This document shows positions 1 through 18,581 of a stretch of 63,794 bases of DNA, piece after piece (within the stretch, counting starts at the first letter, position 1; each line of letters opens with the position of its first letter). Source of the DNA: a virus (Duplodnaviria > Caudoviricetes); IMG/VR virus record IMGVR_UViG_3300048061_000324, positions 1-63,794 of that record, one strand, 5' to 3'. Below the pieces are notes generated by a model that was not told the origin of the DNA, searched no databases, and worked only from the letters and a program-made list of their open reading frames with translations. Position numbers and translations under genes: made by a program.

Positions 1-321
1 ATGATTCTTTTTATCAAAGGTAAATTGTTTATTAAGAGCACCTCTGGTAGTCCATGTACTACTGCGATCACCAAACATTCCTTGTCCGGCATATAGTTCT
101 CTAGTCTTTTTTAACCAAGGTGTTTCATAAAACCCAATAGCATCAAACTTTCCGTATCCTTCTTGATATGATAATGCTTGTTTAATTATTGGTTCACATA
201 AATCTTTATCGTGTTTCTTTTTACTATATCTTTCACTATGTCCAGCAAAAACAATTTCACCATCTTCTACGACAGCCAATCCTGCGTCATGAAATCCTGC
301 ACTTACTCCTAGTGTTAACAT
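1..321 (-). CDS. O-carbamoyltransferase (NodU/CmcH family), N-terminal part; runs off the window edge
   Basis: Not in ORF track. Manual translation from ATG at 321 (TAATG overlap with upstream stop): MLTLGVSAGFHDAGLAVVEDGEIVFAGHSERYSKKKHD...FYETPWLK, matching the HD-x-A...ERYSxxKHD signature. Confidence 0.9.
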   Translation of the reverse strand, partial: MLTLGVSAGFHDAGLAVVEDGEIVFAGHSERYSKKKHDKDLCEPIIKQALSYQEGYGKFDAIGFYETPWLKKTRELYAGQGMFGDRSSTWTTRGALNKQFTFDKKNH

Positions 322-1325
322 TATGCTCTTCTCTCCAAGTCTAACGTGGCACAGTGATGACCTCCTCCTAGTGTACGACTATGTGTTAGTTGTACAGGAA
401 TAACTTCAAACTTTGCACGTTCTAATTTCTTAATTAACTTTGGTTGTCTAGGATCGACAACAACTGTTTTAGGATCAATGCTTAACACATTCATTCCAAT
501 CCAATTACTAGCATATGGATATTTGTGAAACTCCATATCCTCTACACTGTCAACCCAAATGCGTTTATGCTTCTTTAAAAACTTTGGTAACTGCGACGGC
601 TTAACTCTTTGTTTGTTAATTAAAAGAGTTGATTCGTTAAGTGCCGCGATAGTACTATCAATATGAGCATATGCATAAACGTCTTCCCATATATGAACTG
701 TATACTTGGAACCAAGTACTGTACTTAACCATTGAGCACCTGCGGCATTACCTGTTTGACTTTTTAAGTATAACAAGTCATTACCAAAACGCATTACGTT
801 AGCCGCATCAAAGATTGGAGTCTTCTCTGTAAGTTTACCATCTTCAAATACTTCGTGTACTGGTAGTGCGTGTCTTGGTGCACTAATCCACTTAACACCT
901 GACTTCATTGCTTCGTGTCTAATGTCACGGTATGCTTCTGTTTCATGAAACCTACTATGAAACAATACTGGTGTTTCAATTACAACGTTTCCTATTACAA
1001 GGATAACATCACGTGGGCAATAATTATAAAAGCCATCTGCAAAGTATCTGTATCCATGTACAGTTTGTTGAAAGTCTAATTGTCTTGGACGTAAAACTTC
1101 AACACCTAAATCTGTTAATACTTTTTCAAACTGTCGTAGTTCATGATCTGTTAGGTCTATTATATCTTTATTAATTGGTCCAACTGGCTGTGCAGTTTCA
1201 GTCCACTTGCTATGTTTAGCAACTTCATTAAAAACATCATCATACTTTGGAAACCTTGCTCCGTGAACATCTCCTAGTACAACCTTCTTTAATGGATCCC
1301 ATTCGTTATGTGATTCAATAATCAT
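321..1325 (-). CDS. Amidinotransferase (glycine/inosamine-phosphate amidinotransferase family, StrB1-like)
   Basis: SHNEWDPLKKVVLG N-terminus, YCPRD, FDAANV, HIDST and GGGHHCATLD give the Asp-His-Cys triad. Confidence 0.9.
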   Translation of the reverse strand: MIIESHNEWDPLKKVVLGDVHGARFPKYDDVFNEVAKHSKWTETAQPVGPINKDIIDLTDHELRQFEKVLTDLGVEVLRPRQLDFQQTVHGYRYFADGFYNYCPRDVILVIGNVVIETPVLFHSRFHETEAYRDIRHEAMKSGVKWISAPRHALPVHEVFEDGKLTEKTPIFDAANVMRFGNDLLYLKSQTGNAAGAQWLSTVLGSKYTVHIWEDVYAYAHIDSTIAALNESTLLINKQRVKPSQLPKFLKKHKRIWVDSVEDMEFHKYPYASNWIGMNVLSIDPKTVVVDPRQPKLIKKLERAKFEVIPVQLTHSRTLGGGHHCATLDLERRA

Positions 1326-2020
1326 TTGTAACTTCCCATTTTAAAACATTTTGTAATACTTGGATACTTCACGTGTTGTGGTGTTTTCTCTTTGTATTGA
1401 TCTAATTTAACTATACCAACTGCTGATTGCTCAGGGGACAAATAATAATGATATCCAACTTCTTCATACTGTTCCTTATCCCAGGGAGACACTTTTAGAT
1501 CTCTGCCATCGTACCTGGCACGAATAATCCAATCATATGCTTCTCTACTATCTAATAGTATAGCACCTCCTTTACCGATTGTCAATGGTTTTCCATTACC
1601 AAAACTCAAGCATTTAAAGGTTTCTTGTTCATACATATTGCGTTGTAATCTTCTAGCACTATCGTATATAGGCAAGTGTCCTAGTTTGTATTCACCTATC
1701 CATTTGTCTTCGTTAATAACAAATGATAAACCCAAACGTTCAAGCATCATAGGTATACTTAAATATGTTTGGTCTGGTATTTCAATATGAGGGATATGAC
1801 TTGGGTGTTTTCTTTTATACCATCTTATGCACAATTCGATTGCGTGTGTACAACAATCAGTTGTTACTACATATGGTGCTCCAGTATAATCAGCAAGACG
1901 TTTTTCAAATTCTCTTATAACATCATACGGATCATTCCAACCAACACCATAATCTTTTAACATCTCTAGGATGTCAAGATTAATAATGTCCTGTAATTTG
2001 TAAGGTGTATCTTGGTTCAT
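1322..2020 (-). CDS. DegT/DnrJ/EryC1/StrS-family PLP aminotransferase, short form; true start may be downstream
   Basis: FEKRLADYTGAPYVVTTDCCTHAI, YDSAR, SFGNGKPLTIGKGGAI (PLP lysine motif). Confidence 0.85.
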   Translation of the reverse strand: MNQDTPYKLQDIINLDILEMLKDYGVGWNDPYDVIREFEKRLADYTGAPYVVTTDCCTHAIELCIRWYKRKHPSHIPHIEIPDQTYLSIPMMLERLGLSFVINEDKWIGEYKLGHLPIYDSARRLQRNMYEQETFKCLSFGNGKPLTIGKGGAILLDSREAYDWIIRARYDGRDLKVSPWDKEQYEEVGYHYYLSPEQSAVGIVKLDQYKEKTPQHVKYPSITKCFKMGSYK

Positions 2021-2504
2021 AACCTATATTGCCTGCACTGTGTGGAACTCTTCCACGCCAAAGCACGGCTCCTCCTTTGTGCCAATTCATACTATATTGG
2101 TCTACTTCAAACATATGTCCTTGTTTTTTATCTTCTAAAAATACTAAACAACGTAACACATCATCACTACTTTCGATATGAAAGAGTTCTTTATATTTGT
2201 TATAGTGATCTGCGTGTGGTGGTAGTATGTCACCTGTTGTCATTTTATAGAATGTATAACCGCAGTCTTTCCATTCTAAAATTTTTCCAATGTCTTTTGC
2301 CCATTGTGGAATTGCTGACTGATCATTAAACATCATACCAGTAAAGTTATCATGCGTATGTCCAGCAGTTCTCCATTTTGCTAATTGCTCTAAGTCTCCG
2401 TAAGCAACTCGTTTATAATCAAAACTTTCAAAGTCTTTTGTTTCCCATACAGGATCAAGTTCCAGTGTATGATATTCTAAAGGACTAATCTCTTGTGTTG
2501 CCAT
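1980..2504 (-). CDS. Putative 2OG-Fe(II) dioxygenase / cupin-fold hydroxylase
   Basis: LPPHAD...PHSAGN...RYTLQITG fits HxD...H...R facial triad pattern. Confidence 0.7.
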   Translation of the reverse strand: MATQEISPLEYHTLELDPVWETKDFESFDYKRVAYGDLEQLAKWRTAGHTHDNFTGMMFNDQSAIPQWAKDIGKILEWKDCGYTFYKMTTGDILPPHADHYNKYKELFHIESSDDVLRCLVFLEDKKQGHMFEVDQYSMNWHKGGAVLWRGRVPHSAGNIGYEPRYTLQITGHY

Positions 2505-3633
2505 AATGTATTACTTTCACTTTTGGATCTTTGGCTGTGTATGTACGCCATGGATCGAAAACTATTGTTGCACTGTCGACATTAAAGTTATGGTCAGTTG
2601 GGTGAGTTATAACCATAACTTCAACTGCATGGTCGAAACCATTAACAATCATTCCACCCAACTTTCCAATATAGTGTTGAACTAGTAATGCATAAGATCC
2701 ATCAGTGTATGCTACTCCTGGCTTATATGTATCACTCGTAAAGCAAATTTGCTTTCCATGTTTTAATATTTCTTTTGCCATACGTTCGGCTTGTACTTCC
2801 CTACTTTTGGCAATCGCGTCGAACAAGTCATATCCTAAGTCTAATCGTTCCGCTAAATGTCTTAGGGCAATATTATCTCTAGGGTGACAAGGTCCACCAT
2901 CGCCCATGCCTGCTTTCATATAAGCGGCACTGGTAATTCGGTATCCTGCATTACTTAAACTATTTGTTACAACATCAACATTCATATTCCCAACACTTTG
3001 GGCAACGTCTTGAATCATATTAACTAGACTTAACCTTGCACTAATAAATGTGTTGTAAAATATTTTTGTTGCTTCTGCTTCTTCCCATGTACCAATATTA
3101 TAATGCGGATCATTCTCCATTACTGTTTTGTAAAATTTTACTAATGCTTTTGCATCAGTGTCGTTTGGTTTGTTGCCTCCAATGATAACCATATCTGGAT
3201 TTACCATATCCCAAGCAACTGTACCCATAGCAATTAAGTATGGGTTATAAATTAATCTTGCTTTATCTAATAAGCCTGCGAATTCTCTTCTTGTTGTTCC
3301 TGGAAGTACTGTACTAATTAAAACAACAATAGTATCTTCTGTTGCATATTTGTTAATTTCTTTTAAACATTCTTTAACAGGATCTAATCCAAAGTCTTTG
3401 TTTGGTAAATGTGTTATAGGAGTTTCTCCACCATAGTCTTTATGGTGTGGAGTTTGTACTGCAACAAAGACAAAGTCCTGTCCTACTACTGCTTCTTTTG
3501 GTGTCTTAGACACTCGTACAAGCCCACTAAAGCGTTCTACCTTGTCATACCCTGTAACTGTATGTCCTTTCTTAACTAACATCTCAGAACTAATCATTCC
3601 AAGTTTTCCTAAACCAAACCAACCTATTTTCAT
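2485..3633 (-). CDS. ugd: UDP-glucose/GDP-mannose 6-dehydrogenase family protein
   Basis: GLGKLG Rossmann motif, VAVQTP, STVLPGT, AEATKIFYNTF, GMGDGGPCHPRD with catalytic Cys. Confidence 0.88.
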   Translation of the reverse strand: MKIGWFGLGKLGMISSEMLVKKGHTVTGYDKVERFSGLVRVSKTPKEAVVGQDFVFVAVQTPHHKDYGGETPITHLPNKDFGLDPVKECLKEINKYATEDTIVVLISTVLPGTTRREFAGLLDKARLIYNPYLIAMGTVAWDMVNPDMVIIGGNKPNDTDAKALVKFYKTVMENDPHYNIGTWEEAEATKIFYNTFISARLSLVNMIQDVAQSVGNMNVDVVTNSLSNAGYRITSAAYMKAGMGDGGPCHPRDNIALRHLAERLDLGYDLFDAIAKSREVQAERMAKEILKHGKQICFTSDTYKPGVAYTDGSYALLVQHYIGKLGGMIVNGFDHAVEVMVITHPTDHNFNVDSATIVFDPWRTYTAKDPKVKVIHYGNTRD

Positions 3634-4835
3634 AATTCTAATACCTTTGTAATATGTTTTCTAATCTCACCTGTCCTAATTAAGTTACGATTGTGTATAA
3701 GGATTGGTTCCATATGTTTCTTTATTCTTTTTAATTCTCTATATGATTGATTACTGATGTCAATAATAATATCAAATACTTTATCCATTCTTTTAATGGG
3801 ATCAGTTTCTTCATCATAACTTTCATCCCAGAACTCGTGGAATGTTTTTGCTCCCCAATGTTTCAACAAGTCTAAACTATGTGTACCTGCTAATAATAAT
3901 ACAGGTGAGCCTTGCTTCATAGGGTTTAATGTTTTTTCACTTATTTGTCCCCAAGGGTATTCGTAGTTTGTTTCACATACTAAACTAGCAAACGAGTTCC
4001 AATAAGTATCTTCCAACGGATCAGAAGTAGTAATATTATTTATGGTTCCTACTTGAGGGTTTATATAATCTTTCATGCTTACTATTTGACATTCAGTATC
4101 TTCTTTTGTTAATGGCAAATGAGCCATAAGGTCTTTACAACCTTTGCTATAAGATTCAAAATGTTTACTGTTGTTTAATGGAAATTTTAAAAGTACATCA
4201 TCTGTTTTATGATAATGTGTAATAACACTGTCCTCTGGCATTATGTTATATAAGAAACTAACAGCCATATGTCTATGCTGATCCCAGCGATATGTGAAAC
4301 AGTTTATTTTATGATTAATTTCTTCTGGTAGACCATTGCTAGGTTCTCTGTTATAATGACAAGCGCCTAAACTAAAAGTGTCTAATGGGTATATTGCCCA
4401 GTCGGAATACTTTGTGTTTTGTAATTGTTCTAACATACGATACTCATTTGTAAATATTTTAAACTTACAGTTGTGCTTTTTACACCAGTTTTGTATCATA
4501 TCGAATTCATTGATGCTACAATCTTCTTGTATTAACCCGTCTGGGCAACTATACCTGGAGTGATTTTGCCATACTGATAATACTTCGTACAAAAAGAAAT
4601 ATACTGTCGTATGGTCTACAAAGTTAATACTTGAATCTGACCAAGATTCGAACCATTCACACGGACCGTCAAATATAAAATAAGGGGTTTTGATTTCTAA
4701 ACTTTGGAGTGATTCTGCTGTTTTTCGAAATCTTCCACGTGTGTCACTAAATTTAGTGATGGTTGACGTTGCATCAACTACAGAGTGGTTTATTGCTTTG
4801 TTAATGTTATTTATGTAAATTGAATTAAATTGCAT
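3630..4835 (-). CDS. Hypothetical protein, possibly glycosyltransferase-like C-terminal domain
   Basis: 401-aa ORF coupled to neighbours; C-terminal SLVCET...ISEKT...FWDESYD loosely recalls the 'E..TEK' motif of GT10-like enzymes. Confidence 0.5.
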   Translation of the reverse strand: MQFNSIYINNINKAINHSVVDATSTITKFSDTRGRFRKTAESLQSLEIKTPYFIFDGPCEWFESWSDSSINFVDHTTVYFFLYEVLSVWQNHSRYSCPDGLIQEDCSINEFDMIQNWCKKHNCKFKIFTNEYRMLEQLQNTKYSDWAIYPLDTFSLGACHYNREPSNGLPEEINHKINCFTYRWDQHRHMAVSFLYNIMPEDSVITHYHKTDDVLLKFPLNNSKHFESYSKGCKDLMAHLPLTKEDTECQIVSMKDYINPQVGTINNITTSDPLEDTYWNSFASLVCETNYEYPWGQISEKTLNPMKQGSPVLLLAGTHSLDLLKHWGAKTFHEFWDESYDEETDPIKRMDKVFDIIIDISNQSYRELKRIKKHMEPILIHNRNLIRTGEIRKHITKVLEL

Positions 4836-6183
4836 CGAACCAAGCCATATATTCGGGAAAAACTTCGCTAAAAATGGTACTTCTACGTTTATCGAGCTCT
4901 TTAGTATATACTTTAAAGTTCTGCTTATGATTATTACTATCTACTGTTTGTTGACTTCTCCAGTATTCAATAATACGTTCTAGTTTAGCAGTTTCACTAT
5001 TGTGCATTAACTCTACAATTTCCATCTGTTTCATATACTCAACTGTATTAGTCATGTATTCTTCAAATGTTTTATCTAGTATTTTAACATCCATCATCTC
5101 AGGATATCTTAAAAAAGGTATGTCAATGTACATACAATCTCTACCGTATTGTTTTCTTATTTCAACTAAATCTTTTAGAAAGTCTTTGAATGATGTTACA
5201 CTTAATGCATTGTAGGTACACATGAATGTAACTACAAACCTGTCTTCATTTTTAAATTCTTCTAATACACGTTTTACATTTTTTATAAACTTGTTATAAT
5301 CTAAACCATTTCTAATATACTCTGCTTTATTACCAAATGCTTCTGCACTTGTGTAAACTTCTAGTTTACGAACTTTGCCACTTGCTAATACTTTCTTTGC
5401 TTGATTAATAAACTTATCGAATAGTTTGTCCTCAACACAAAAGTTACTATTAATACCTAACAATAAATCTTTATTTGGTTTATCTGTTTCAATGATCCAG
5501 TCCATCATTTTAAATGTGTTCTTATTCATAAGTGGCTCGCCACCTGTAACACGGAACGTATGCAATGCTGGGTACAACTCAGGCCACCATTCCCAAAATG
5601 CTTCTACATATGGATTGTGTTCTCTTTCCGGTATAGGCATTCTGCCTCTGCGTTCTGTCCATGTTATGTCGTTGTAATTGTCTGAGGTGCTAAAGCCTCC
5701 ATGTTGTTTTACTTCTTGCATCCACGCACTACTGATAGCCGGACTGCAATACATACATTTAAAATTACAAGCATAACCAAAACTTACTTCTACATAACTT
5801 GGTTGAAAGTTTGTACTCCAATCATTATTTTTAATTGTATCAAAGTGTTTGTTACTCCAACTAAATGCACTCTTTAAATGTCTGTCACTTAAAGCATTTG
5901 GATCTGCATCTTCAACTCTCCAACAGTAGTCACATTCTTTAGGTCTACCACCTTCGAGCATTTCTTTACGTTGTTGTTTTTTATATATAGAGTTGTGTAG
6001 TGAACTAGGGTCTAGTTTAATTTCGTCAACTGGTACTTGGTGTACCGGTGGGTGATGACAACTATGTGCAGTTCCATTTTGTAAGTTAAGTGTAAGTTGT
6101 GTCCACTTTGCTAAACAGAATCCAGGACCTACTGCATTCAGTTTGGCTTTCATTTCATGCGGATCTGTTCCGGTAAAACTCAT
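4825..6183 (-). CDS. Radical SAM protein with N-terminal Cys-rich (twitch/SPASM-like) segment
   Basis: CNFKCMYC (CxxxCxxC), TGGEP; N-terminal CLAKW...CHH...CDYC. Confidence 0.9.
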   Translation of the reverse strand: MSFTGTDPHEMKAKLNAVGPGFCLAKWTQLTLNLQNGTAHSCHHPPVHQVPVDEIKLDPSSLHNSIYKKQQRKEMLEGGRPKECDYCWRVEDADPNALSDRHLKSAFSWSNKHFDTIKNNDWSTNFQPSYVEVSFGYACNFKCMYCSPAISSAWMQEVKQHGGFSTSDNYNDITWTERRGRMPIPEREHNPYVEAFWEWWPELYPALHTFRVTGGEPLMNKNTFKMMDWIIETDKPNKDLLLGINSNFCVEDKLFDKFINQAKKVLASGKVRKLEVYTSAEAFGNKAEYIRNGLDYNKFIKNVKRVLEEFKNEDRFVVTFMCTYNALSVTSFKDFLKDLVEIRKQYGRDCMYIDIPFLRYPEMMDVKILDKTFEEYMTNTVEYMKQMEIVELMHNSETAKLERIIEYWRSQQTVDSNNHKQNFKVYTKELDKRRSTIFSEVFPEYMAWFDAI

Positions 6184-6887
6184 TACGAATAATCTTCTTT
6201 AAGTATATCCCAAGTATCATAAGGCCCTTTGACTTGATGCCATTTATCTCCAGGGTTTGTCATTTTGTCTGCTAATGGTTTATCGTTTCCATTAACATGA
6301 ATTCTGTCTCCAAAGAATATCATTGGTGTCCCAATAATATCATATACTTGTGCTTTGTTCTTTCCTTTTAGATGAATATCTATACTAGTGTTACCACCTA
6401 GTTCTGCTTCAAATCCTGGAAAAGTTTCGTTAAACATTTCACAAATACTAACACGTTCATTATTTACTTTGTCCCATTCATAATAATCATCACGTTGTTG
6501 CCCTACGGCATTTCTTCCTACAGTACTAAAGTTTATTAACCCTGTACGTTTTTCAATATGAAGTCCATACTTGTGTTTATATTTACTGAAGTCTACTTGT
6601 TGTTCTAACCATGTGTCCATATCTTCTGGAGCATTAAGGTTACTACTCGAAACTTCAATACCATTACGCCATACACTGTTACCTGCACATTGAAATACCA
6701 TTGTACAGTTGTCTACGATCTCGTGTCCTATTTGTTCTATTGTTTTAGGTCTATCACTACCTGTAACAATAAAGACACTTTTGTTTTTCATCCAGTTTAA
6801 GAACCAGAGTCTAAAGTCAACAGGAATTACTTGCCTACTTTCAGACAAGGTTCCATCTACGTCAAATACATAATTTACACGGTCCAA
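6183..6887 (-). CDS. HAD-IIB phosphomannomutase (eukaryote-type PMM family)
   Basis: FDVDGTL, VTGSD, IEKRTGLINFS, GGNTSIDI, FFGD...GND motifs; TTG start. Confidence 0.85.
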   Translation of the reverse strand: MDRVNYVFDVDGTLSESRQVIPVDFRLWFLNWMKNKSVFIVTGSDRPKTIEQIGHEIVDNCTMVFQCAGNSVWRNGIEVSSSNLNAPEDMDTWLEQQVDFSKYKHKYGLHIEKRTGLINFSTVGRNAVGQQRDDYYEWDKVNNERVSICEMFNETFPGFEAELGGNTSIDIHLKGKNKAQVYDIIGTPMIFFGDRIHVNGNDKPLADKMTNPGDKWHQVKGPYDTWDILKEDYS

Positions 6888-7036
6888 CTTTTCAACTGCT
6901 CCTTTGTTGGTTTCATTGGTTCAAGTTTTTCTATCTTGCCACCCTTCTCTAAAAACTTTTTCATTCGTTCATCTAGTTTTCTTTGAAGTTCAGCAGGTTC
7001 TGGTTTTGTATAATCTTTTTGTTTATTATCTATCAT
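6875..7036 (-). CDS. Small basic protein (53 aa), SutA RNAP-binding-domain-like
   Basis: Not in ORF track; ATGA overlap with RLP stop; MIDNKQKDYTKPEPAELQRKLDERMKKFLEKGGKIEKLEPMKPTKEQLKSWTV. Confidence 0.7.
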   Translation of the reverse strand: MIDNKQKDYTKPEPAELQRKLDERMKKFLEKGGKIEKLEPMKPTKEQLKSWTV

Positions 7037-8169: not shown

Positions 8170-8186
8170 AATGTATTGTACCTTCT

Positions 8187-10175: not shown

Positions 10176-10182
10176 TGATTTC

Positions 10183-10305: not shown

Positions 10306-10324
10306 TTTATGAGTTCCATATTGT

Positions 10325-11083: not shown

Positions 11084-11852
11084 CTACTTTAGGTTTAATA
11101 ATTTCAAACACTTGTCTATGTCCTTCGTAGTCACAATGTCCTGTATTCCTTTTGTCAGGGTACTCTCTACTAAAATATCCCCAATCAACATTTGCATAAT
11201 TTACTTCAGGTAGCAGTCTTTCAAAGTCTGGCTGGTGTCCCATAAAAATGTGTGGTATATTATTTGTTTTCATCAGCAAGTGTGCTGATGTTAAAATACC
11301 AATGTCATACTCATTTTTAATATCAAATGAGAAAAAGTCTGCTACCCAATTCTGTAATACTCTTAAACGTGCATCTGGTTCGTGTCTTTCAAACTGTGCC
11401 CAATGTGCCTTAACATCTCTATCAAAAAAACTATCTAAATTTTGTAGTGTTTCACTTTGCATACTATTATCAGTTGTAACTGGAATAGGTCTTCGAAACT
11501 CTGCTGGTGTGTATCTGTCATATGGTGGATAGTCTTCATAATTTAAATGTTCGATTGTTGGTTCTGTTCCCATAGGTTTATCTTGCCCAGGTTTAAACCA
11601 AACAGTTCTTGCCGCATTTGTCATGCTAATAATAACAAAAGGTTTATAATTACCTACTGTCATTCTTTCAACTGCGTGTTTAACTTGCAACCAAATAGTG
11701 AAGTTACAACACCCACTTCTACCAATTACTTTTTGTTCCACACCTTTGTATTCGGCAGTAAGTCCACCAAAACTTTTTTCAAAACAATCATGGTCAGGTA
11801 GTCCACTACCATTACTAAAACTATCACCGCACGTTATAATTAAATTTCGCAT
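11064..11852 (-). CDS. SGNH/GDSL-hydrolase-like protein
   Basis: TCGDSFSNG, GRSGCCN, GHCDYEGH. Confidence 0.72.
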   Translation of the reverse strand: MRNLIITCGDSFSNGSGLPDHDCFEKSFGGLTAEYKGVEQKVIGRSGCCNFTIWLQVKHAVERMTVGNYKPFVIISMTNAARTVWFKPGQDKPMGTEPTIEHLNYEDYPPYDRYTPAEFRRPIPVTTDNSMQSETLQNLDSFFDRDVKAHWAQFERHEPDARLRVLQNWVADFFSFDIKNEYDIGILTSAHLLMKTNNIPHIFMGHQPDFERLLPEVNYANVDWGYFSREYPDKRNTGHCDYEGHRQVFEIIKPKVDAQWDH

Positions 11853-12712
11853 ATGTTATTTTCTCTAATATATCTGTTAAGTTCTCTTGCCCAAAGCATA
11901 TGTCCGTATTTGTTTGGATGCATACCCGAAATAACTTTTGTATTATATTCAGTGTCATCTTGATTTGTAATATATCCATGAAAACTATGTGGTGCTTCTG
12001 TTTTACCATAGAATCTTTTACTGTCTACTTGTTCCCATAACCAACCATCGTTTTGTCCGTTGTAATGAAAGTTCCAACGTGGATCAGCATTACCTACCGT
12101 CATCTTTTCTGTTTCACTGTTAACGTAATTTTTATCTTGCCATTGCGATATCTGTGTTTCATCTACATTATAAAATGCTTGAAAGAACAAGTAGTTAATC
12201 TTATGTACTTTAAAAAAGTTTTCTAATTGTAGTACTTGTTGTACATATCGATTAACATACTCTTCTTTATTCCATAAGTACATTCTGTAGTTATCAAAGA
12301 AGGGTTGCATACCTCTTTGCATATACGGATGGTTAGTTTGATTGGGCCATATAGTAGTCCAGCCAGAGCCGTTACGTTCGTCTACAGGATCCTTATAGTA
12401 AAAGTCCTTACGTTCAGGACTAGTTAAGCCAACTATGACAAACAAATTGTTTTCACAGTCTATATCAGGCTTAATATAATTTTCAGTAATCCAACTTAAT
12501 GTTGTTCTTACAATTCTATCATTACTTGCGGCAGGATAAGATATGTTTGTTAAGTCATCTGCTTTAATCATATCCTTTAACATAGTGGGCCAAATTTTAG
12601 GAATGCGATATGCATTGTTCTCTGGATCCCAATCACTTACAGTGTCTGGTAAAGCAGGATCTCTAATCTCACTGCCAAATGTCCAACTATCTCCTGTTGT
12701 TAATAAGTGCAT
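11840..12712 (-). CDS. SGNH/GDSL-hydrolase-like protein
   Basis: TTGDSWTFG, NISYPAASNDRI, HPNKYGH. Confidence 0.78.
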   Translation of the reverse strand: MHLLTTGDSWTFGSEIRDPALPDTVSDWDPENNAYRIPKIWPTMLKDMIKADDLTNISYPAASNDRIVRTTLSWITENYIKPDIDCENNLFVIVGLTSPERKDFYYKDPVDERNGSGWTTIWPNQTNHPYMQRGMQPFFDNYRMYLWNKEEYVNRYVQQVLQLENFFKVHKINYLFFQAFYNVDETQISQWQDKNYVNSETEKMTVGNADPRWNFHYNGQNDGWLWEQVDSKRFYGKTEAPHSFHGYITNQDDTEYNTKVISGMHPNKYGHMLWARELNRYIRENNICEI

Positions 12713-13461
12713 TAATAAGCCGCCTTTATCTCTTCAAATTGTGTACTTGGATCTAAATCTTCTACACTAGTTCTCCAAAGTGTTTCCATTAATTGTGGAA
12801 CAATTTGTATCATTTTAATATTTCTTTTTTGTGCTTGTTGATATATTAATGTTCCAGGACTTAACATACTATCTCCTGGATCTGTAGTATAACCACCTTG
12901 TAGTTTTAATGCTAATGGATAAGTTTCCCAATTATAATAACGATATGAATCACAAGCAATATCCATACTAGGACTATCACCCCAGAATATAATATCACTT
13001 AATCCGTGTTTACCAAAGTCGTTTGGTACTAAACCTCTGTTACCAATACTATAGTATATACTTCTTTCTTCAATAGGTCTCGGACCAAATGTTTTTCCAT
13101 CTGGTGTTAGCATATCATATCTGCATTTAATTACTTTATCATATCTAAAATTATTCTTTACTTCAACTTCACGTTTCATAAAGTTTGATTTTTGTATACT
13201 GTAAAGCATATTACCAAACGGGCCTGCATGATTAATTGAAGTTTGATAATCTAGTTTAATTAAATTATGTACACTATCATTAATAGTTTCTTCTAATATT
13301 TTGTAGTCATCTAATTTATGTAACTTGTCACCTGAGGTTGTCCAAGTATGACAATAAATATCTGCTGGTGTATCTCTAAAGTAATCCATTAAACGTGGCA
13401 TAGCAACTTTAAAAGTTCTAAGTTCACCACTAAAACATATTGCAGTATTAGAGTGTTTCAT
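12712..13461 (-). CDS. Putative glycosyltransferase-like protein (paralog of next gene)
   Basis: AICFSGELR...HTW...YDKVIKCRYD shared with 13448-14185. Confidence 0.55.
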   Translation of the reverse strand: MKHSNTAICFSGELRTFKVAMPRLMDYFRDTPADIYCHTWTTSGDKLHKLDDYKILEETINDSVHNLIKLDYQTSINHAGPFGNMLYSIQKSNFMKREVEVKNNFRYDKVIKCRYDMLTPDGKTFGPRPIEERSIYYSIGNRGLVPNDFGKHGLSDIIFWGDSPSMDIACDSYRYYNWETYPLALKLQGGYTTDPGDSMLSPGTLIYQQAQKRNIKMIQIVPQLMETLWRTSVEDLDPSTQFEEIKAAY

Positions 13462-14185
13462 AATCGCCTCCTCCTGTCATATGTTCTTGTTTAGGTCTTA
13501 CTAGTTTAATTGGGGGATATATTTGTTCTAAGTTTAAGTTACATTCTTTTAAGTAATACATAAAAACGTGTTCAGGTCCATAATGTAATTTCTCTGGCAT
13601 TTCAAAAAACTCTATTGGGTGTCTATGAAAGTGACTGTAAAAATCACAAGCAATATCATAAACATCTGTTGGTCCTTGCCAATACAAATCTCCACAACGA
13701 CTTCTGTGATTGCCTTCTTCAAATCCTAAATGTATAACTTGTAACGTATCTTTCTTAGGTTCAGGTACTTGCCAATCTTCGTCAAACATAGTGTCCCAAC
13801 GTAATCTGACAACTAAATCAAAGTTACTATTATTCTCTATCTCAAATTTCTTTTTTAAATGTGATGCCACCATTACGCCATAAAACTGACTTTGGTAATT
13901 AACATCATGTAATGCTTGGTCTAACCCTGGAGTAAATTCAATTTGTTTTTGTGATACTATTTCTAGTCCAGGCAATTCTCTACGAAGTTCTTGTATTTCA
14001 GAATTAGGAACCTCTTCTATGTCATCAATACCTTTAGTCACTTTAACAAAGTTTGGTGCACTACGAGTATTCCATGTATGTCCAAAGTAATGTACTTCAT
14101 GTTCTTTAAATACATCTTTCCAAGTTGGTAAACATTTACGCCAACTCTGTCTTAATTGTCCACTTAAACAAATTGCTATTTTCAT
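13448..14185 (-). CDS. Putative glycosyltransferase-like protein
   Basis: AICLSGQLR...HTW...FDLVVRLRWD...PE. Confidence 0.55.
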   Translation of the reverse strand: MKIAICLSGQLRQSWRKCLPTWKDVFKEHEVHYFGHTWNTRSAPNFVKVTKGIDDIEEVPNSEIQELRRELPGLEIVSQKQIEFTPGLDQALHDVNYQSQFYGVMVASHLKKKFEIENNSNFDLVVRLRWDTMFDEDWQVPEPKKDTLQVIHLGFEEGNHRSRCGDLYWQGPTDVYDIACDFYSHFHRHPIEFFEMPEKLHYGPEHVFMYYLKECNLNLEQIYPPIKLVRPKQEHMTGGGDYETL

Positions 14186-14197
14186 AATGTTATCCTT

Positions 14198-14440
14198 TTA
14201 AAACCAGTTCCAAACTCCACGTATTGCTAAACACAAATACATAAGTTCCATTAGTGCTCTGGGTATATCTTTATCTTTGTAACCCATGTATACCCAAATA
14301 CTACAACTGAATAATGCAACTGCCCACCCTAGCCACTGTAGTTCTTCGTTACCACTTGATAATATAAATGCACTTATCATTGCTAGGATAAAACCTAACC
14401 ATCTAAATCCATCCAGTTTTTCGTAAAAGCGAATTTTCAT
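14198..14440 (-). CDS. Small membrane protein (about 3 TM helices)
   Basis: Three hydrophobic stretches in 80 aa. Confidence 0.65.
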   Translation of the reverse strand: MKIRFYEKLDGFRWLGFILAMISAFILSSGNEELQWLGWAVALFSCSIWVYMGYKDKDIPRALMELMYLCLAIRGVWNWF

Positions 14441-14858
14441 AATTGCTTACCCAATCTGAGCAAATACCAAAGCAACCTTCAGGGACGGTATCTTTCTCAT
14501 TTTGCAAACATATAACACTTTTAGATGTTACTTGTTTGTAAGGGTATGTCCAAATATACCCTTTACTTGTTAATGTTCTTTCATCTTGTTCATGCCAAAA
14601 GCAATGTATGTAATTAAATAACATAAATTCTAATGCTTCTAAATTTTTTGCATGATTCCAAAATGCATTGTTGCTTATAAAATTTTGTGTAACAGGGTAT
14701 GTAGGTTTGTCGTGTCCTAGCCATAACCTTTCATTAACAAACCACACATCAACTTCGCAGTCAAAACCTTTGTCAACTGCGTTAAGTAAATACTCAGGAT
14801 CGTTTTCCCTCTCAGGTTTTGGACCTGCTGTATTTCCTCTATGTGCGATTAGTTTCAT
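14403..14858 (-). CDS. Glycerophosphodiester phosphodiesterase (GDPD/PLC-like) domain protein
   Basis: LIAHRGN...EN...GFDCEVDV...LGHD motifs. Confidence 0.8.
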   Translation of the reverse strand: MKLIAHRGNTAGPKPERENDPEYLLNAVDKGFDCEVDVWFVNERLWLGHDKPTYPVTQNFISNNAFWNHAKNLEALEFMLFNYIHCFWHEQDERTLTSKGYIWTYPYKQVTSKSVICLQNEKDTVPEGCFGICSDWVSNYENSLLRKTGWI

Positions 14859-15036
14859 CTTTTTTTCTTATACTCCAAGTTTTATCATCCAGTTCTTCCC
14901 AAATAAGATTATCGCCTACGTCCCATCCTACTTGATCTAAACACCCAGGGGGAAATTCTAAAAACAGTTCTTTTGTCTTGCCGTTCTCTTGTATTTCTAC
15001 TGTCCAACTATTTGTTCCTGTTTGTTTATATTTCAT
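14839..15036 (-). CDS. AbrB/MazE/SpoVT-like small DNA-binding protein
   Basis: LFLEFPPGCLDQVGWDVGDNLIW swapped-hairpin pattern. Confidence 0.6.
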   Translation of the reverse strand: MKYKQTGTNSWTVEIQENGKTKELFLEFPPGCLDQVGWDVGDNLIWEELDDKTWSIRKKDETNRT

Positions 15037-15971
15037 TATTTCTTCCTGTCTGCTTCTTGTTCTGTAATCATTACACCATAACGTTTTGGATTTTGGTATA
15101 CACTTTTAAACCATATACTACCTTGTGCATCTAAATCTGCAACTCTGTAATGAAGTTCATCTCTTAATCTATCGCCATAGTGTTGCAATTTTTTCAAACG
15201 ATCTTTAGGATTTGAATATACTTTTGTTTTCTCTCGTACAAAAGGTTGCATAAAACCATAGTCGGCAATTTGTGTATGATCCCAGCCATCTAAATTTATT
15301 TTCGCAACTGCTTCTCTGGCTCCTAATATTGCCCAATCACCATTTGGAACATCCATACCAACACTACACCAAATACTAAGACGTTGCATATTTTTAATAT
15401 GATTCTGTGTTAAGAATTTATTTTTAGGAGGAAGTATACCTTTATCTAAACTCATTTTAACGCCTTCTCTAAAGCCGCCTCTGTATGCTTGTTCTGGTGT
15501 TGCGTTAATAACTACATCACTAAATGTGTCTGCCATTTGGAAGTATGTATGCATCCAACAAAAGTCTACACTATGAGCACCATCTTCACTTTGGTCATTC
15601 TCATGACTATTCATATTCTCAATAACGTGTTTGGGCCATAGTTTAAGTCCACCATTACCGTATGCTAAACTATTAACAATGTTATGTCCACACCAACTAA
15701 AGATATAATCGCTTTGTTCTTCTTCGTCAATCTCAATAGTTTGTTTAAAGAAATCTTTGTGTACAACATTGTCCCCGTCTACTGTAACTAATCTTCTTTT
15801 AGTTGCAATCCTACCTGCTTCATTGTGTGCCGCATCGAAACCCGTAAAGCCGTCAACACGTTTAGCCCATGGGCACTTGCTTAACAAGTCTGCCCAATTC
15901 TTTTCTTTGTTTGGTTCATCGTAACTAATGTAAATTACATCAAAGTCACTAATTGGATAAGTCTGTTTCAT
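15036..15971 (-). CDS. Putative GT-A glycosyltransferase
   Basis: DVIYISYDEP, AAH, VTVDGDN (DxD). Confidence 0.6.
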   Translation of the reverse strand: MKQTYPISDFDVIYISYDEPNKEKNWADLLSKCPWAKRVDGFTGFDAAHNEAGRIATKRRLVTVDGDNVVHKDFFKQTIEIDEEEQSDYIFSWCGHNIVNSLAYGNGGLKLWPKHVIENMNSHENDQSEDGAHSVDFCWMHTYFQMADTFSDVVINATPEQAYRGGFREGVKMSLDKGILPPKNKFLTQNHIKNMQRLSIWCSVGMDVPNGDWAILGAREAVAKINLDGWDHTQIADYGFMQPFVREKTKVYSNPKDRLKKLQHYGDRLRDELHYRVADLDAQGSIWFKSVYQNPKRYGVMITEQEADRKK

Positions 15972-16548
15972 TTTCTATTTCCTTATAAGCCATAAACACA
16001 TTTACATCATCTTCTGTAAGTATTTCACAACTATTGATTTTTTTATATTCTTTAATATGATATTCTAATTCTTGCTTATGTTGTAAATCTATTTCAGCAA
16101 GTGATAGCAAATAATTTCCTTTTGGCACTACCCATAATTTTCTTTTAGAAGGTAAACTACTTGCTACATTAATTTTTAAATTTCTTGTTTCTTTATTAAA
16201 AAGTAATGTTACAAGTCTTTCAGGATTCCATAAAGACGGATCTAATTTATGTAACATTGAATTGTTTCGAGAAGCATTGCTACTAATGTCAACAATCTTT
16301 ACAGGGTCTGAATCTTTATCAATAATGTAATTATTTAAATTAACATCTTGCATTTTTAAAAATTCTTCTCTAGTAATATTTGTTACTAGATCATCTTTAA
16401 ATTCTTCTTGTTGATTCGCTGACATTGATAATATTTTACCAAACGAATCGTAATAAAGAAAAAACTGTTGTTCTTCTTTATCTTTTTTTAGAGAACCAAA
16501 ATGTTGTTGCATCATTTGATTAAATTCTAAATCGCTAAATTCTGACAT
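15949..16548 (-). CDS. Hypothetical protein
   Basis: 199-aa ORF translationally coupled to neighbours. Confidence 0.65.
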   Translation of the reverse strand: MSEFSDLEFNQMMQQHFGSLKKDKEEQQFFLYYDSFGKILSMSANQQEEFKDDLVTNITREEFLKMQDVNLNNYIIDKDSDPVKIVDISSNASRNNSMLHKLDPSLWNPERLVTLLFNKETRNLKINVASSLPSKRKLWVVPKGNYLLSLAEIDLQHKQELEYHIKEYKKINSCEILTEDDVNVFMAYKEIENETDLSN

Positions 16549-17411
16549 TATACTCCTGCTTGTTTCTCTAAAGTTTTAATTAATTCATCTGTACACCATG
16601 ACTTAACACAATAATGTACTGGCTTTGTTTGATAGTAGTTATTAATCCACAAACCTTCTTCATTATATTGTCCGTCTAAATAATCTGTCCAGTCTGTATC
16701 ACTAACTGTGTAATCTAATAATCCTTGGCATCTACTTTTCATATGTACAAAACTAAAAGATTGTGGAGGTGTTACTTTATCTTCCCAACCTAATAATCTA
16801 ATTGCCATTCCATAAACCTCATCAGTGTAAGCAACATCATTAGTATTAATTCTCATAAACTCGTTTGAATACTTTTCCCAATCCCTATAGATATCTTCTA
16901 CTTGTAAATAAAACAATAGTGCTTCTTTACTTTTCTTAAAGTATGTTAATGCACTGTAGGCATTATAAAATTGATTTTCAGAAAACCCTCTTCTATAATA
17001 AGTATCGTCTCCAACTATATCTCTAAACGTGTGTATTTTATTACACACTCCAATTGGGAAGTTTCTGGCTTTCATTATTTCCCAATAGTAGTTTACATCT
17101 GTTGTGAAAAGCATATCAGCATCAAGTTTAATAGTTTCGTCATATGGCGTCATATGATAAACTTTCCACTCATTTTGTAACTTCCAATTATGCATTATTG
17201 CTTCGTCTGTCCAGGGGATAATTTTGACATCGAAAACGTCTAAATAATGCTTAGGTAGTTTTTCTAAATCTTCTTCAGTCATACCTACTGTTAAGTCACT
17301 CGGCCCTTTTGTTTGACTTGCTTTCAAACTTAATGCTAGTGCATATGCCATTCGAGGATAGTCCCCAAATTTCTTACTGTATTGTGCAAATGTAAAATAT
17401 CCTTTACTCAT
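16548..17411 (-). CDS. Putative GT-A (GT8-like) glycosyltransferase
   Basis: TPYDETIKLDADML (DxD), TDE, FVHMK. Confidence 0.65.
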   Translation of the reverse strand: MSKGYFTFAQYSKKFGDYPRMAYALALSLKASQTKGPSDLTVGMTEEDLEKLPKHYLDVFDVKIIPWTDEAIMHNWKLQNEWKVYHMTPYDETIKLDADMLFTTDVNYYWEIMKARNFPIGVCNKIHTFRDIVGDDTYYRRGFSENQFYNAYSALTYFKKSKEALLFYLQVEDIYRDWEKYSNEFMRINTNDVAYTDEVYGMAIRLLGWEDKVTPPQSFSFVHMKSRCQGLLDYTVSDTDWTDYLDGQYNEEGLWINNYYQTKPVHYCVKSWCTDELIKTLEKQAGV

Positions 17412-18241
17412 GAATAAATCTCCATAAACTTATCATAATTTTTTTCTAAAGATTGTTTGTTGAGCATATGTACATTTGTATCTTTAAGTAATACAGGAAT
17501 AGTTTCTGTTTCTAAAACTATACTTCCTTTTTTAACATCTAATATATTTTCCATTCCAAAACTATTGATTTGTCTAACAGGTAAAGGTTTAATATAGTCG
17601 TCTCTAAAGCCGCCAATTATATGACTTGCAATCGCGGCTGTTATATCATTACGAAAGTATTGATAAGGAATTCTAAATGTCTTTTTATAAAAGTCGTAAT
17701 TTTCTTTTACATACTTTGCAATATCAAACCATTCTTTAGTTTCTTCACACTTGCGAAAGTACATAACTGTAAACCAGTGTACTTTGCTAAACCCATCTTG
17801 CACAACAAGTTCATAAATGTGTTGTTGATGTTTAGCAGGAATTCTTGTATGTGTGTTCATAAGCATGGGTTCTTTGTTTCCCCATACAGAGTTTAGCACA
17901 TCATTTTGTATTAAGTAATCAGTGTCAATTAATATTGTTTCATCAAATGGAGATAGATCGTATGCAGTGAGCCTATCAAGATTATGCCATTGTACAGGAG
18001 TAAATTTTCCATCCACGTACATTGGTCTTAAATTTATCTCTTCTACTTTTGCTTTCCAATCAATAATGACATCAAATAATGATAAATCTTCTTCGCATTC
18101 ATCTAAAGGTGTTACTATTGCAACAGGTACATTTAGATAGTGTTTGGCAAGTACTGCCGACACTTTTGCTTGTTTTATATAATTAAAGTCTTTATTGTTT
18201 TTTGCAAAGAGAAGAATACCTTTATTCTTCGTTGAAGTCAT
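17408..18241 (-). CDS. Putative GT-A (GT8-like) glycosyltransferase, paralog of 16548-17411
   Basis: SPFDETILIDTDYL (DxD), RND, VHMLNK. Confidence 0.65.
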   Translation of the reverse strand: MTSTKNKGILLFAKNNKDFNYIKQAKVSAVLAKHYLNVPVAIVTPLDECEEDLSLFDVIIDWKAKVEEINLRPMYVDGKFTPVQWHNLDRLTAYDLSPFDETILIDTDYLIQNDVLNSVWGNKEPMLMNTHTRIPAKHQQHIYELVVQDGFSKVHWFTVMYFRKCEETKEWFDIAKYVKENYDFYKKTFRIPYQYFRNDITAAIASHIIGGFRDDYIKPLPVRQINSFGMENILDVKKGSIVLETETIPVLLKDTNVHMLNKQSLEKNYDKFMEIYS

Positions 18242-18581
18242 ATTGAACTAACTCTTCGATTGTCCTTGCTTGTCTTAATCGTCTTATCTCTGCTAGTGCA
18301 TTGTTCTGCTCTTGAGCATATTTCTTCATGCAACTATCTTTGAATTCTTTTACGTTTGTAATTTCAGTTGGGTTTCCGTTGATATCGTCTATAACTGCTG
18401 AGTCATATCCAGAACGGTTTAAGTGGTCTAAATGATTTAGAAGCTCACTATTGATATAAAATAGTCCGCCAAGATGACCAACAGTGAGCTTCTCTTTGAT
18501 TAATTCTTTAAGAAGGTTTAATTGATTTTGTTGAACTGCTATATATTTTGATTTGTCAAAAATTGTTTCTAAGTTTTGCAT
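18222..18581 (-). CDS. Hypothetical protein, first gene of the accessory operon
   Basis: 119-aa ORF with AGGA SD upstream. Confidence 0.65.
   Translation of the reverse strand: MQNLETIFDKSKYIAVQQNQLNLLKELIKEKLTVGHLGGLFYINSELLNHLDHLNRSGYDSAVIDDINGNPTEITNVKEFKDSCMKKYAQEQNNALAEIRRLRQARTIEELVQYDFNEE

Follow-up and report, generated by a model that had tools for sequence, protein, structure and literature searches.

A predicted sugar-donor and glycan gene block, including a RuBisCO-like protein cassette, beside the tail fibre genes of a jumbo myophage

What does a large tailed phage make with approximately 28 coupled genes for sugar activation, tailoring and transfer that are located directly downstream of its tail fibre genes? 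The question is raised by positions 1–18581 (hereafter the block) of a 63,794-bp stretch of viral DNA (hereafter the window), which constitutes the whole of IMG/VR virus record IMGVR_UViG_3300048061_000324 (Duplodnaviria; Caudoviricetes). CheckV places the completeness of this record at 18%, which for 63,794 bp implies a genome of approximately 350 kb, and the same size estimate is obtained from a relative (G001; 306,714 bp, 87% complete according to CheckV). Our analysis indicates that the block very probably represents a single glycan or nucleotide-sugar pathway. The overall best explanation, which is put forward tentatively, is that of a sugar-donor and glycan pathway whose acceptor would be the phage's own fibres.

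Within the block, every tiling open reading frame (ORF) of at least 60 aa is located on the minus strand (n = 26), and 21 of the 25 junctions between these ORFs overlap by 1–41 nt. The other four junctions are gaps of 12, 17, 145 and 149 nt, the two longest of which each contain a small minus-strand ORF (6875–7036, 53 aa, and 10183–10347, 54 aa, respectively), thus giving a total of 28 genes. A first-pass annotation of the window had described one coupled minus-strand operon of about 28 genes lying directly downstream of the tail fibres, and both statements are borne out, fibre-like genes being identified by PHROG at 18670–24048. The absence of visible export genes was likewise confirmed: a Pfam scan of 30 window proteins and ten further proteins of G001 yielded no initiating or lipid-carrier transferase, flippase, polymerase or ABC exporter family, and a transmembrane-like segment is present in just one of the 28 products (the 80-aa protein encoded by 14198–14440). 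When compared with Wzx/Wzy- or ABC-dependent O-antigen or capsule loci, the block does not belong to either class. The claim that the block is self-contained could not be sustained, as it is cut by the contig end at window position 1, lacks an initiating transferase, flippase and polymerase, and in G001 extends for at least a further 8.7 kb, to the end of that contig. This extension encodes a full-length carbamoyltransferase of 519 aa, a paralog of the 15036–15971 product, a second sugar dehydrogenase, a second cupin, a cytidylyltransferase and three radical SAM proteins. The three radical SAM genes stand in a row beyond the point at which the window is cut (L083:5393–9053), and the last of them encodes an N-terminal SPASM/twitch-like part with 23% identity to the product of 4825–6183.

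An assignment was obtained for 20 of the 28 genes (Table 1). Nucleotide-sugar supply, as previously annotated, is represented by a phosphomannomutase (PMM; PF03332), a sugar-phosphate nucleotidyltransferase (NTase; PF00483) and an NDP-sugar dehydrogenase (PF03721 and PF00984), the last of which also reaches 138 bits against TIGR03026 (below the cut-off of 189.8). Among the tailoring enzymes, the amidinotransferase matches StrB1 (1bwd, the L-arginine:inosamine-phosphate amidinotransferase of streptomycin biosynthesis) over its full length (279 bits, residues 2–332), followed by HsvA, SxtG and AGAT, and the C-terminal catalytic Cys motif of 1bwd ('...GGGFHCATLD') has its aligned counterpart in '...GGGHHCATLD' of the window protein, which places the latter in this family. 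More than 6,700 metagenome proteins match it, of which the approximately 100 best outside its own clade are 45–51% identical, while homologues occur in only six cultured phage records. In contrast to the streptomycin system, the block carries no cyclitol-forming enzyme and its context is that of nucleotide-sugar genes and glycosyltransferases (GTs), so that the acceptor of the amidino group is more likely to be an amino sugar. The adjacent half-size aminotransferase displays LegC/PseC-type NCBIfam matches that fall far below cut-off, and the orthologue of the truncated carbamoyltransferase in G001 (519 aa) contains both Carbam_trans_N and Carbam_trans_C. The radical SAM protein exceeds the NF033640 cut-off (326.5 bits against 170) and its translation contains a C-x3-C-x2-C motif; a search against PDB sequences returned nothing meaningful, and a BtrN-type reading is therefore without sequence support. 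Of four SGNH-like proteins, three score above the DUF6071 cut-off, and in their family (A6) G7, D8, S9 and H265 are invariant (i.e. a Gly-Asp-Ser motif and a C-terminal His); the fourth (11064–11852; A7) aligns to A6 by hhalign with a probability of 97.1% (E 4.9e-11) and with the GDS motif in register. The list of tailoring enzymes and the four SGNH-like proteins given by the first-pass annotation consequently stand, save for the 2-oxoglutarate (2OG)-Fe(II) enzyme (1980–2504), which is a weak call (PF05118, 20.4 bits against a cut-off of 22.6; the Asp/Arg-hydroxylase family is found in 19% of the members of its Atlas neighbour cluster).

The nucleotidyltransferase, a small cupin, a RuBisCO-like protein (RLP) and a mini-phosphodiesterase with the catalytic motifs of GDPD (mini-GDPD) together form a core cassette, which is one module of a mosaic block. 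The RLP matches PF00016 with 118.5 bits (cut-off 30.1) and belongs to the RuBisCO superfamily as an RLP (form IV in the wide sense), its best NCBIfam match being type III RuBisCO (150.8 bits against a cut-off of 497). Its active site was assessed by HMMER alignment to the form III enzyme 2cwx in combination with the invariant residues of 34 family members. Invariant residues that align to RuBisCO positions include K153/K155 (the Lys residues of 'KPK'), K179-E-D-E182 (D181 and E182), S328-C-G330 and G352-G353; we take the KED set to be the Mg/carbamate site, and Ser-x-Gly together with Gly-Gly to be the first phosphate site. Other positions are changed: where 2cwx has 'IHAHRAMH' the RLP has 'IHYQKSGD', an invariant Tyr (Y303, in the same 34 family members) takes the place of the loop-6 Lys, and an invariant GQSVGNP stands in place of the catalytic stretch of the N-domain. 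The residues specific to carboxylases are the loop-6 Lys, the His-Arg...His stretch and the N-domain Glu/Thr/Trp/Asn, and their replacement rules out RuBisCO proper (forms I–III). As the metal/carbamate and phosphate-site residues are retained while the carboxylase residues are lost, this protein is probably capable of Mg binding and of enolising a phosphorylated keto sugar, whereas carboxylation is not to be expected.

Teamwork of an RLP and a cupin has a precedent in the Rhodospirillum methylthio-sugar shunt. The cupin of the present cassette retains H43, H45 and E50 (invariant in family A2), and its profile matches generic cupin_2 chains only, one of which is named mannose-6-phosphate isomerase. 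In many loci the NTase gene is followed immediately by the cupin gene, the order that a bifunctional ManC/AlgA-type enzyme would show in split form, and the NTase itself matches a PHROG profile of 495 positions. In the mini-phosphodiesterase, H6, R7, E18, N19, E35, D37 and H49 are invariant among 37 sequences and align to GDPD 7e0v; it yields no Pfam match at E ≤0.01 and is not a full-length GDPD domain, and while it may work like GDPD, it is not filed here as a member of that family.

The distribution of the cassette was evaluated in the best 80 of 192 matching IMG/VR stretches (63 distinct RLP sequences; 48–96% identity, most about 50%), with neighbours counted as ORF clusters within approximately 8–9 kb of the RLP gene on the same strand. 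The NTase accompanies the RLP in 76 of these 80 viral loci, the mini-GDPD in 65, the cupin in 56 and all three in 43. A GT or sugar-tailoring family of any kind is found near the RLP in 72/80, DUF7796 GT-A proteins in 39/80, Methyltransf_24 in 25/80, epimerase/GDP-mannose 4,6-dehydratase in 22/80 and FkbM methyltransferase in 13/80. A tblastn search with the RLP against 50,697 cultured phage records gave no match. A scan of one genome per prokaryotic species identified 43 cellular loci, in which the NTase (39/43), mini-GDPD (22/43) and cupin (14/43) are again neighbours, as are epimerase/GDP-mannose 4,6-dehydratase (13/43), GT2 and methyltransferases. The carriers include many Pelagibacteraceae (one of them a complete chromosome), Patescibacteria/Beckwithbacteria, DPANN archaea, a Verrucomicrobiae chromosome, Nonomuraea rosea and Azospirillum oleiclasticum; some of the short contigs labelled as cellular may be misbinned virus. 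On the complete Pelagibacter chromosome the neighbours are an HAD-NTase fusion, a GT9 gene, a 2-hydroxyacid dehydrogenase and a CMP-sugar-synthetase-like (cytidylyltransferase) gene. A quick tree built from 103 RLPs shows viral sequences interleaved with cellular ones, with ten label changes, at least five of which are forced by well-supported branches; SAR11 sequences form two separate groups, one next to viral sequences and the other next to DPANN archaea. This separate placement suggests that the cassette was transferred repeatedly. In Nonomuraea rosea (L111, 7477–12917) the four-gene cassette is located between integrase genes in what looks like a mobile island, together with a GT2 gene, an AdoHcy-hydrolase-like NAD-domain protein, a deoxynucleoside-kinase-like protein and a radical SAM gene.

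About six GT-like genes had been listed by the first-pass annotation, and five of these are supported as predicted GT-A-fold transferases. Two of them (12712–13461 and 13448–14185) form a family with 36 relatives (A3), of which 12 of the 38 members match Pfam DUF7796, while the family profile retrieved no PDB match by sequence. The AlphaFold2 (AF2) model of 13448–14185 (pLDDT 83.8) adopts a GT-A Rossmann-like fold, with the GT6 enzyme BoGT6a (4ayj) retrieved by Foldseek (E 4e-8) and aligned by VIA with Z 13.6 and an rmsd of 3.3 Å over 184 residues; all 50 matches listed by VIA are glycosyltransferases. The product of 16548–17411 has 915 homologues that lack a Pfam family, many of them on contigs of 200–384 kb, and its profile (A4) matches, over roughly the first 108 positions, 19 glycogenin (GT8) sequences (E 8.7e-4 to 0.012) and brings the D-x-D motif into alignment. 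The neighbouring 17408–18241 aligns to A4 by hhalign (probability 96.35%, E 1.5e-9), and the GT8 assignment of both genes is tentative, neither product giving a Pfam Glyco_transf_8 match. The fifth (15036–15971) belongs to a family of 1,044 representative clusters, in which some relatives (715–809 aa) are fused behind GT-B (GT28/EryCIII-like) domains and Pfam GT2 matches remain below cut-off. Its AF2 model (pLDDT 94.1) contains a GT-A N-domain in which D65 of the D-x-D motif is nearly invariant and D67 invariant; Foldseek retrieved TarP and PBCV-1 A64R (E 3–4e-4), VIA gave Z 10.4 and an rmsd of 3.0 over 140 aligned residues, and the fold neighbours include the capsid-glycosylating PBCV-1 A64R and the peptide-glycosylating SunS/ThuS. 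No relation of this family to A3 or A4 was detected by hhalign. Structure prediction thus upholds the GT calls for both proteins modelled. The sixth candidate (3630–4835; 36 homologues) is without a family, its profile giving no PDB matches and nothing in Pfam; a GT10-like lead in the Atlas (0.80) lies within the chance range. A weak GmaR match (E 0.06) was likewise left out of the evidence.

Comparison with related sequences revealed that the block is a mosaic of modules with very different distributions. Gene order is kept from end to end only in L002/L003 and L005, and a 12-kb relative (L004) keeps it over the part covered, with 58–98% aa identity across these records. In L052 the order is the same at 49–85% aa identity, only 8513–8797 not being found, and it is partly kept in L007/L008, L033 and L013–15; in G001 the giant protein, the fibres and the block follow one another as in the window. 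Order conserved among relatives and tight coupling agree with the earlier view of a coherent glycan or nucleotide-sugar unit rather than scattered genes, and the predicted co-conservation is likewise observed.

Besides the RLP cassette, three modules can be distinguished. The second comprises the homologue of 18222–18581, the two GT8-like genes, 15036–15971 and the twitch-domain radical SAM gene, which form one run of five homologues in the Ralstonia jumbo phage RsoM2USA (ORF349–354, MG752970.1; annotated as hypothetical) at 34–41% identity, including 40% between 4825–6183 and ORF349 and 41% between 16548–17411 and ORF352. RsoM2USA is the only one of the cultured phage records with a GT8-like or radical SAM protein of these families. 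Its run follows the gene of giant virion protein ORF361, a sheath gene, a nucleotide-sugar epimerase gene and ORF356, a virion protein confirmed by mass spectrometry (MS) in the available text of PMC8504454. However, RsoM2USA displays no match to the RLP cassette, amidino set or SGNH proteins in the 31-kb stretch examined, and in the window the radical SAM gene is separated from its partners by ~9 kb. The third module, the amino/amidino/carbamoyl tailoring set, is shared in part with cyanophage S-SCSM2R (PQ898602.1; Synechococcus sp. WH7803), whose genes 305–310 encode a half-size DegT-like protein (37% identity to 1322–2020), a small 2OG oxygenase (26% to 1980–2504; annotated as 2OG-Fe(II) oxygenase) and an 'inosamine amidinotransferase' (36% to 321–1325) among GT genes with a radical SAM gene. 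Its gene order differs from that of the window, and RLP, carbamoyltransferase and SGNH matches are absent from the 21.6-kb stretch. Near the amidinotransferase gene, the same stretch (L128, 1–21617) is densely packed with genes for 2OG-Fe(II) oxygenases, GTs, a dTDP-4-dehydrorhamnose epimerase and an 'MPI protein'. The fourth module consists of the four SGNH paralogs, and SGNH proteins are present in 11/80 viral RLP loci, compared with 12/80 for the twitch radical SAM family and 10/80 for the carbamoyltransferase.

Transcription signals were assessed by motif scoring. The best sigma70-like site of the region (TTGACA-17-TAAAAT, 11 of 12 positions) lies upstream of the first gene of the block and is followed by a 16-bp hairpin with a U run (−24.2 kcal/mol, z −6.76) between the last fibre gene and the block; both elements are kept in G001, where the surrounding spacer has diverged. 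As sigma70-like sites in positions 1–19999 are not above chance (84 versus 87.8 expected), only this single best site was used. The T4 late-promoter octamer TATAAATA has no copy in the window (11.3 ± 3.6 expected), and the looser motif RATAAATAH was used in place of TATAAATA; it occurs 11 times in the window, nine of these just upstream of structural genes and on their strand. From these motifs we infer that the block may be an early or middle unit that is insulated from late fibre transcription. Metatranscriptome contigs of four out of four runs cover parts of the block, more deeply at 18.4–20 kb and with ends at 18444, 18463, 18605 and 18700, but such contigs cannot show level, strand or ends and the libraries may contain DNA, and no conclusion was drawn on expression or on the parts left uncovered.

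Gene content, coupling and co-conservation together make one sugar-donor-plus-glycan pathway the best reading. According to this proposal, the block would be the front two thirds of a phage factory of ~29 kb for an unusual sugar donor and its glycan, in which the PMM-type mutase, the nucleotidyltransferase and the cupin would take care of supply and activation. An activated (NDP-linked) sugar would be produced from a common ketose or sugar phosphate by the NTase-cupin-RLP-miniGDPD cassette, in which the RLP would catalyse an enolisation or isomerisation rather than CO2 fixation. The donor would then be oxidised and aminated, the amine would be turned into a guanidino group with arginine as the amidino donor, and hydroxyls would be carbamoylated and acylated, with the SGNH paralogs handling the acyl groups. 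Soluble GT-A enzymes would transfer the units to the acceptor inside the infected cell. The acceptor, of which we are less sure, would be the Ser/Thr-rich fibre proteins encoded directly upstream, and transcription from the block's own early-type promoter would ensure that enzymes and donor pool are in place by the time the late fibre proteins are made.

A virion target for the glycan is possible rather than probable. The fibres are favoured as acceptor because the enzymes appear soluble, genes for lipid-linked assembly are missing, module 2 is located among virion genes and the product of 18670–19587 is rich in Ser/Thr. This protein contains 30.5% Ser+Thr, and the other three fibre-region proteins 21.4, 17.1 and 23.4%, compared with a mean of 10.3% for the block enzymes; 19618–21090 and 21814–24048 are tail-fibre-like by PHROG, while 18670–19587 has no PHROG match. 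Module 2 is found next to virion genes in two distant jumbo phages (the window phage and RsoM2USA). Virus-encoded glycosylation of virions is known from mycobacteriophage capsids and tail tubes. PBCV-1 A64R (2p6w) similarly represents a soluble, virus-encoded GT-A enzyme that acts, together with nucleotide-sugar enzymes, in the cytoplasm on the virus's own structural proteins, although its similarity to the window enzyme is at the fold level only (E 4e-4, TM 0.28–0.39).

Several points weigh against this reading. Beyond the presence of families every step, including the RLP reaction and the sugar, is inferred, and eight of the 28 genes are without an assignment (3630–4835, 8513–8797, 14198–14440, 14839–15036, 15949–16548, 18222–18581 and the two small ORFs). 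Similarity to GT8 and to GT2 is remote (E ~1e-3; Z 10.4 over 140 residues), IspD-type nucleotidyltransferases reach nearly as high a score against 15036–15971 (Z 8.4–9.0), and the mini-GDPD matches 7e0v over residues 2–53 only (E 1.1e-4). A homologue of the structural or replication genes of the window lies within 10 kb in only six of the 80 viral RLP loci, a figure that says little because fibres diverge fast. The late-promoter-like RATAAATAH has no copy on the coding strand of the block, and a strong hairpin separates the block from the fibre operon, an arrangement that fits a function unrelated to assembly equally well. In cells, moreover, the core cassette occurs within LPS-type islands (with GT9 in Pelagibacter), and the authors of PMC7029224, in its available text, favour modification of the host O-chain as the role of the GT8-rich islands that adjoin the tail fibres in marine myophages.

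Remodelling of the host surface is a close rival to a virion target, and yet, taken by itself, we consider it unlikely. The same donors and soluble transferases would in this case act on the lipid-linked lipopolysaccharide (LPS) core or O-chain of the host, which would export the product, making export genes of the phage's own unnecessary, and the outcome would be to exclude other phages or to stop progeny from sticking to debris. Such a role is in keeping with a sigma70-like promoter of early type and with the separation of the block from the late fibre operon, as well as with the CMP-sugar-synthetase-like and GT9 genes beside the cassette on the complete Pelagibacter chromosome. GT8 is, in the available text of PMC7029224, the commonest GT of pelagimyophage tail-fibre islands, and the O-chain idea offered there is itself a proposal. 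However, the block contains no initiating or membrane-bound transferase, and the transferase module of RsoM2USA is interleaved with virion genes.

It is improbable that the block lacks one product and is instead a hypervariable dumping ground of separate cassettes (the RLP cassette, the GT8/radical SAM module, the amidino set and the SGNH paralogs), each with its own host or phage target. The distributions are compatible with such a collection: the core cassette occurs in 80 kept viral and 43 cellular loci, the other modules are far rarer (radical SAM 12, SGNH 11 and carbamoyltransferase 10 of the 80 viral loci), the GT8 module is common to one of 50,697 cultured phage records and the amidino trio recurs alone in S-SCSM2R. 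Tight translational coupling nevertheless runs across the module borders behind one conserved promoter, gene order is conserved down to the 49–85% aa identity of L052, and the modules are chemically complementary (supply, tailoring and transfer), which argues against such a collection.

Still less probable is a small-molecule product of infection, diffusible and aminoglycoside-like or pseudo-oligosaccharide in nature, which might serve to block competitors. Aminotransferase and carbamoyltransferase neighbours are also found in aminocyclitol pathways, and the StrB1-like amidinotransferase (279 bits) adjoins a DegT aminotransferase and a carbamoyltransferase in a block that also encodes radical SAM enzymes and transferases, with one small membrane protein that could serve export. 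With more than 6,700 metagenome homologues, however, the amidinotransferase is no marker of aminoglycoside clusters, no resistance or efflux gene was recognised, and neither inositol-phosphate synthase nor a sugar-phosphate cyclase family was found among the 30 window and ten further G001 proteins. A streptidine-type aminocyclitol pathway was rejected, as these 40 proteins include no cyclitol-forming enzyme. Glycosylation of phage DNA, in which the donor sugar would be placed on hydroxymethylated bases as in T-even phages, has very little to recommend it: T4-like core genes are present and phage-encoded donor-sugar pathways for DNA sugars exist in T4 relatives, but the thymidylate-synthase-family hydroxymethylase (PF00303) is found in none of five related records (one of them 87% and one 100% complete) and cellular carriers keep the core cassette among cell-surface sugar genes.

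Parts of this picture have been described before. The HRC islands of marine pelagimyophages and cyanomyophages (Zaragoza-Solas et al. 2020, PMC7029224) are, in the available text, variable islands in the structural region of T4-like myophages that combine fibres with many GTs (GT8 being the commonest) and with UDP-glucose dehydrogenase and radical SAM cassettes; judged by its fibres, GTs, sugar dehydrogenase and radical SAM genes in the structural region, the block belongs with them. In contrast to these islands, it resides in a jumbo myovirus of ~350 kb rather than in a pelagimyophage, is a single tightly coupled operon with its own promoter, and is extended by the RLP cassette, by the amidino/carbamoyl set and by four SGNH paralogs; the word 'RuBisCO' does not occur in the available text of PMC7029224. 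Phage RLPs were described by Jaffe et al. 2018 (PMC6389311), who, in the text available, report ~80 'form IV-like' sequences, leave their function open and discuss carbon metabolism and gene transfer. The RLP studied here resembles them in being divergent, in residing on large Myoviridae-type IMG/VR contigs and in its incomplete carboxylase residues, and a Beckwithbacteria metagenome-assembled genome (MAG) locus (L087; 48% identity) falls in the same RLP tree, which probably places it in the clade of Jaffe et al. The cassette context is not described in the available text of that paper, whereas here the RLP is tied to an NTase, a cupin and a mini-phosphodiesterase in sugar islands. A literature search found no paper that links a RuBisCO-like protein to a nucleotidyltransferase or to jumbo phages, while phage amidinotransferases are already annotated in a few records.

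The boldest form of the proposal is that a branch of the RuBisCO fold was recruited for a committed activated-sugar step in phages, SAR11, candidate phyla radiation (CPR) bacteria and DPANN archaea, and that the phage glycan is guanidino- and carbamoyl-bearing, acylated and attached by soluble GT-A enzymes to the phage's own tail fibres; taken as a whole, this is rather improbable. If true, it would be a virion coat chemistry so far unseen in any virus, with a positively charged glycan, and the reactions known for one of the best-studied enzyme folds would gain a new type through the RLP step. Through the four-gene cassette, a RuBisCO relative whose function has been an open question since 2007/2018 becomes linked to nucleotide-sugar chemistry in viruses, bacteria and archaea alike. 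Glycan islands of marine myophages have been described, but their product and decorated target were never demonstrated, and the block offers a concrete, testable list of parts. If fibres or host LPS carried a guanidino or carbamoyl sugar, this would have consequences for phage host range, for superinfection exclusion and for the recognition of phages.

Table 1. Features of the block and of the region immediately upstream of it, with the evidence for each call
Position	Strand	Feature	Evidence
1..321	-	carbamoyltransferase, N-terminal 107 aa only (contig end)	PF02543, 27.2 bits; phrog_1601
321..1325	-	StrB1-like L-arginine amidinotransferase	phmmer against PDB: 1bwd, E 4.4e-82
1322..2020	-	half-size (232 aa) DegT/DnrJ/EryC1-type sugar aminotransferase	PF01041, 63.5 bits
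1980..2504	-	small Asp/Arg-hydroxylase-like (2OG/Fe) cupin, weak call	PF05118, 20.4 bits (cut-off 22.6)
2485..3633	-	NDP-sugar (UDP-Glc/GDP-Man type) dehydrogenase	PF03721, 62 bits; PF00984, 56.7 bits; phrog_9148, 275 bits
3630..4835	-	401-aa protein, no family	no Pfam, NCBIfam or PHROG match
4825..6183	-	twitch-domain radical SAM enzyme (N_Twi_rSAM)	NF033640, 326.5 bits (cut-off 170)
6183..6887	-	phosphomannomutase-type HAD-IIB phosphomutase (PMM)	PF03332, 74.1 bits; phrog_29277, 204 bits
6875..7036	-	candidate small ORF, 53 aa, in gap next to RLP gene	ORF call
7033..8169	-	RuBisCO-like protein (RLP), non-carboxylase	PF00016, 118.5 bits
8187..8516	-	109-aa metal cupin (HxH...E), isomerase-like	family A2 invariants; profile against cupin_2 chains
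8513..8797	-	94-aa protein	no family match; only in close relatives
8761..9468	-	SGNH-like (DUF6071) paralog 1	PF19547, 43.6 bits; GDS invariant in A6
9453..10175	-	sugar-phosphate nucleotidyltransferase (NTase)	PF00483, 47.4 bits; 4evw, E 3.6e-11
10183..10347	-	candidate small ORF, 54 aa, TTG start	ORF call; no Pfam match
10325..11083	-	SGNH-like (DUF6071) paralog 2	PF19547, 36.3 bits
11064..11852	-	SGNH-like divergent paralog 3	hhalign, A7 against A6
11840..12712	-	SGNH-like (DUF6071) paralog 4	PF19547, 71.2 bits
12712..13461	-	GT-A-fold transferase, DUF7796-like	phrog_13607; family A3, paralog of 13448..14185
13448..14185	-	GT-A-fold glycosyltransferase (GT6-like fold)	AF2 model, Foldseek, VIA
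14198..14440	-	80-aa membrane protein, sole one in block	one transmembrane-like segment
14403..14858	-	mini-phosphodiesterase, GDPD catalytic motifs, 151 aa	family A1 invariants; profile against 7e0v
14839..15036	-	65-aa protein	phrog_661
15036..15971	-	transferase, GT-A N-domain (D-x-D) and helical C-domain	AF2, Foldseek, VIA
15949..16548	-	199-aa protein	no meaningful family match
16548..17411	-	GT8-like (glycogenin-like) GT-A transferase	profile A4 against glycogenin
17408..18241	-	paralog of the 16548..17411 GT8-like transferase	hhalign to A4
18222..18581	-	119-aa product, first gene of block	34% identity to RsoM2USA ORF354, same position
18589..18653	-	sigma70-like promoter, then 16-bp hairpin and U run	motif scoring, folding energy
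18670..24048	-	four fibre-region genes directly upstream of block (context)	PHROG, composition

From 19.6 kb onward the window carries T4-type virion and replication genes, including those for a gp6-like wedge, a gp25-like protein, a late sigma factor, gp46/47-like nucleases, tape measure, portal, prohead protease and major capsid protein. The nearest cultured major capsids (61–64%) are those of the jumbo phages Sinorhizobium Phosso, Vibrio 2.275.O and Pseudomonas PA5oct. A megablast search with positions 1–18581 against the cultured phage records gave no match. In seawater the phage is common: 14 DNA runs of seawater metagenomes contain at least 83% of the words sampled from positions 12000–21000. 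Between the baseplate wedge gene and the fibre genes lies a single ORF of 4,177 aa (24082–36615, minus strand), the product of which is 81% identical to its G001 counterpart and displays weak similarity to the giant virion protein ORF361 of RsoM2USA. A 2OG-Fe(II) oxygenase (58735–59298, plus strand; phrog_81, 113 bits) is encoded between the portal and prohead-protease genes. Within the block, the 80-aa membrane protein (14198–14440) has a weak, sub-threshold PnuC-family match and could be a small transporter subunit, and the small ORF at 6875–7036 overlaps the stop of the RLP gene and the start of the PMM gene and displays a weak match to the SutA RNA-polymerase-binding domain (E 2.9e-4, 20.6 bits, cut-off 29.3).

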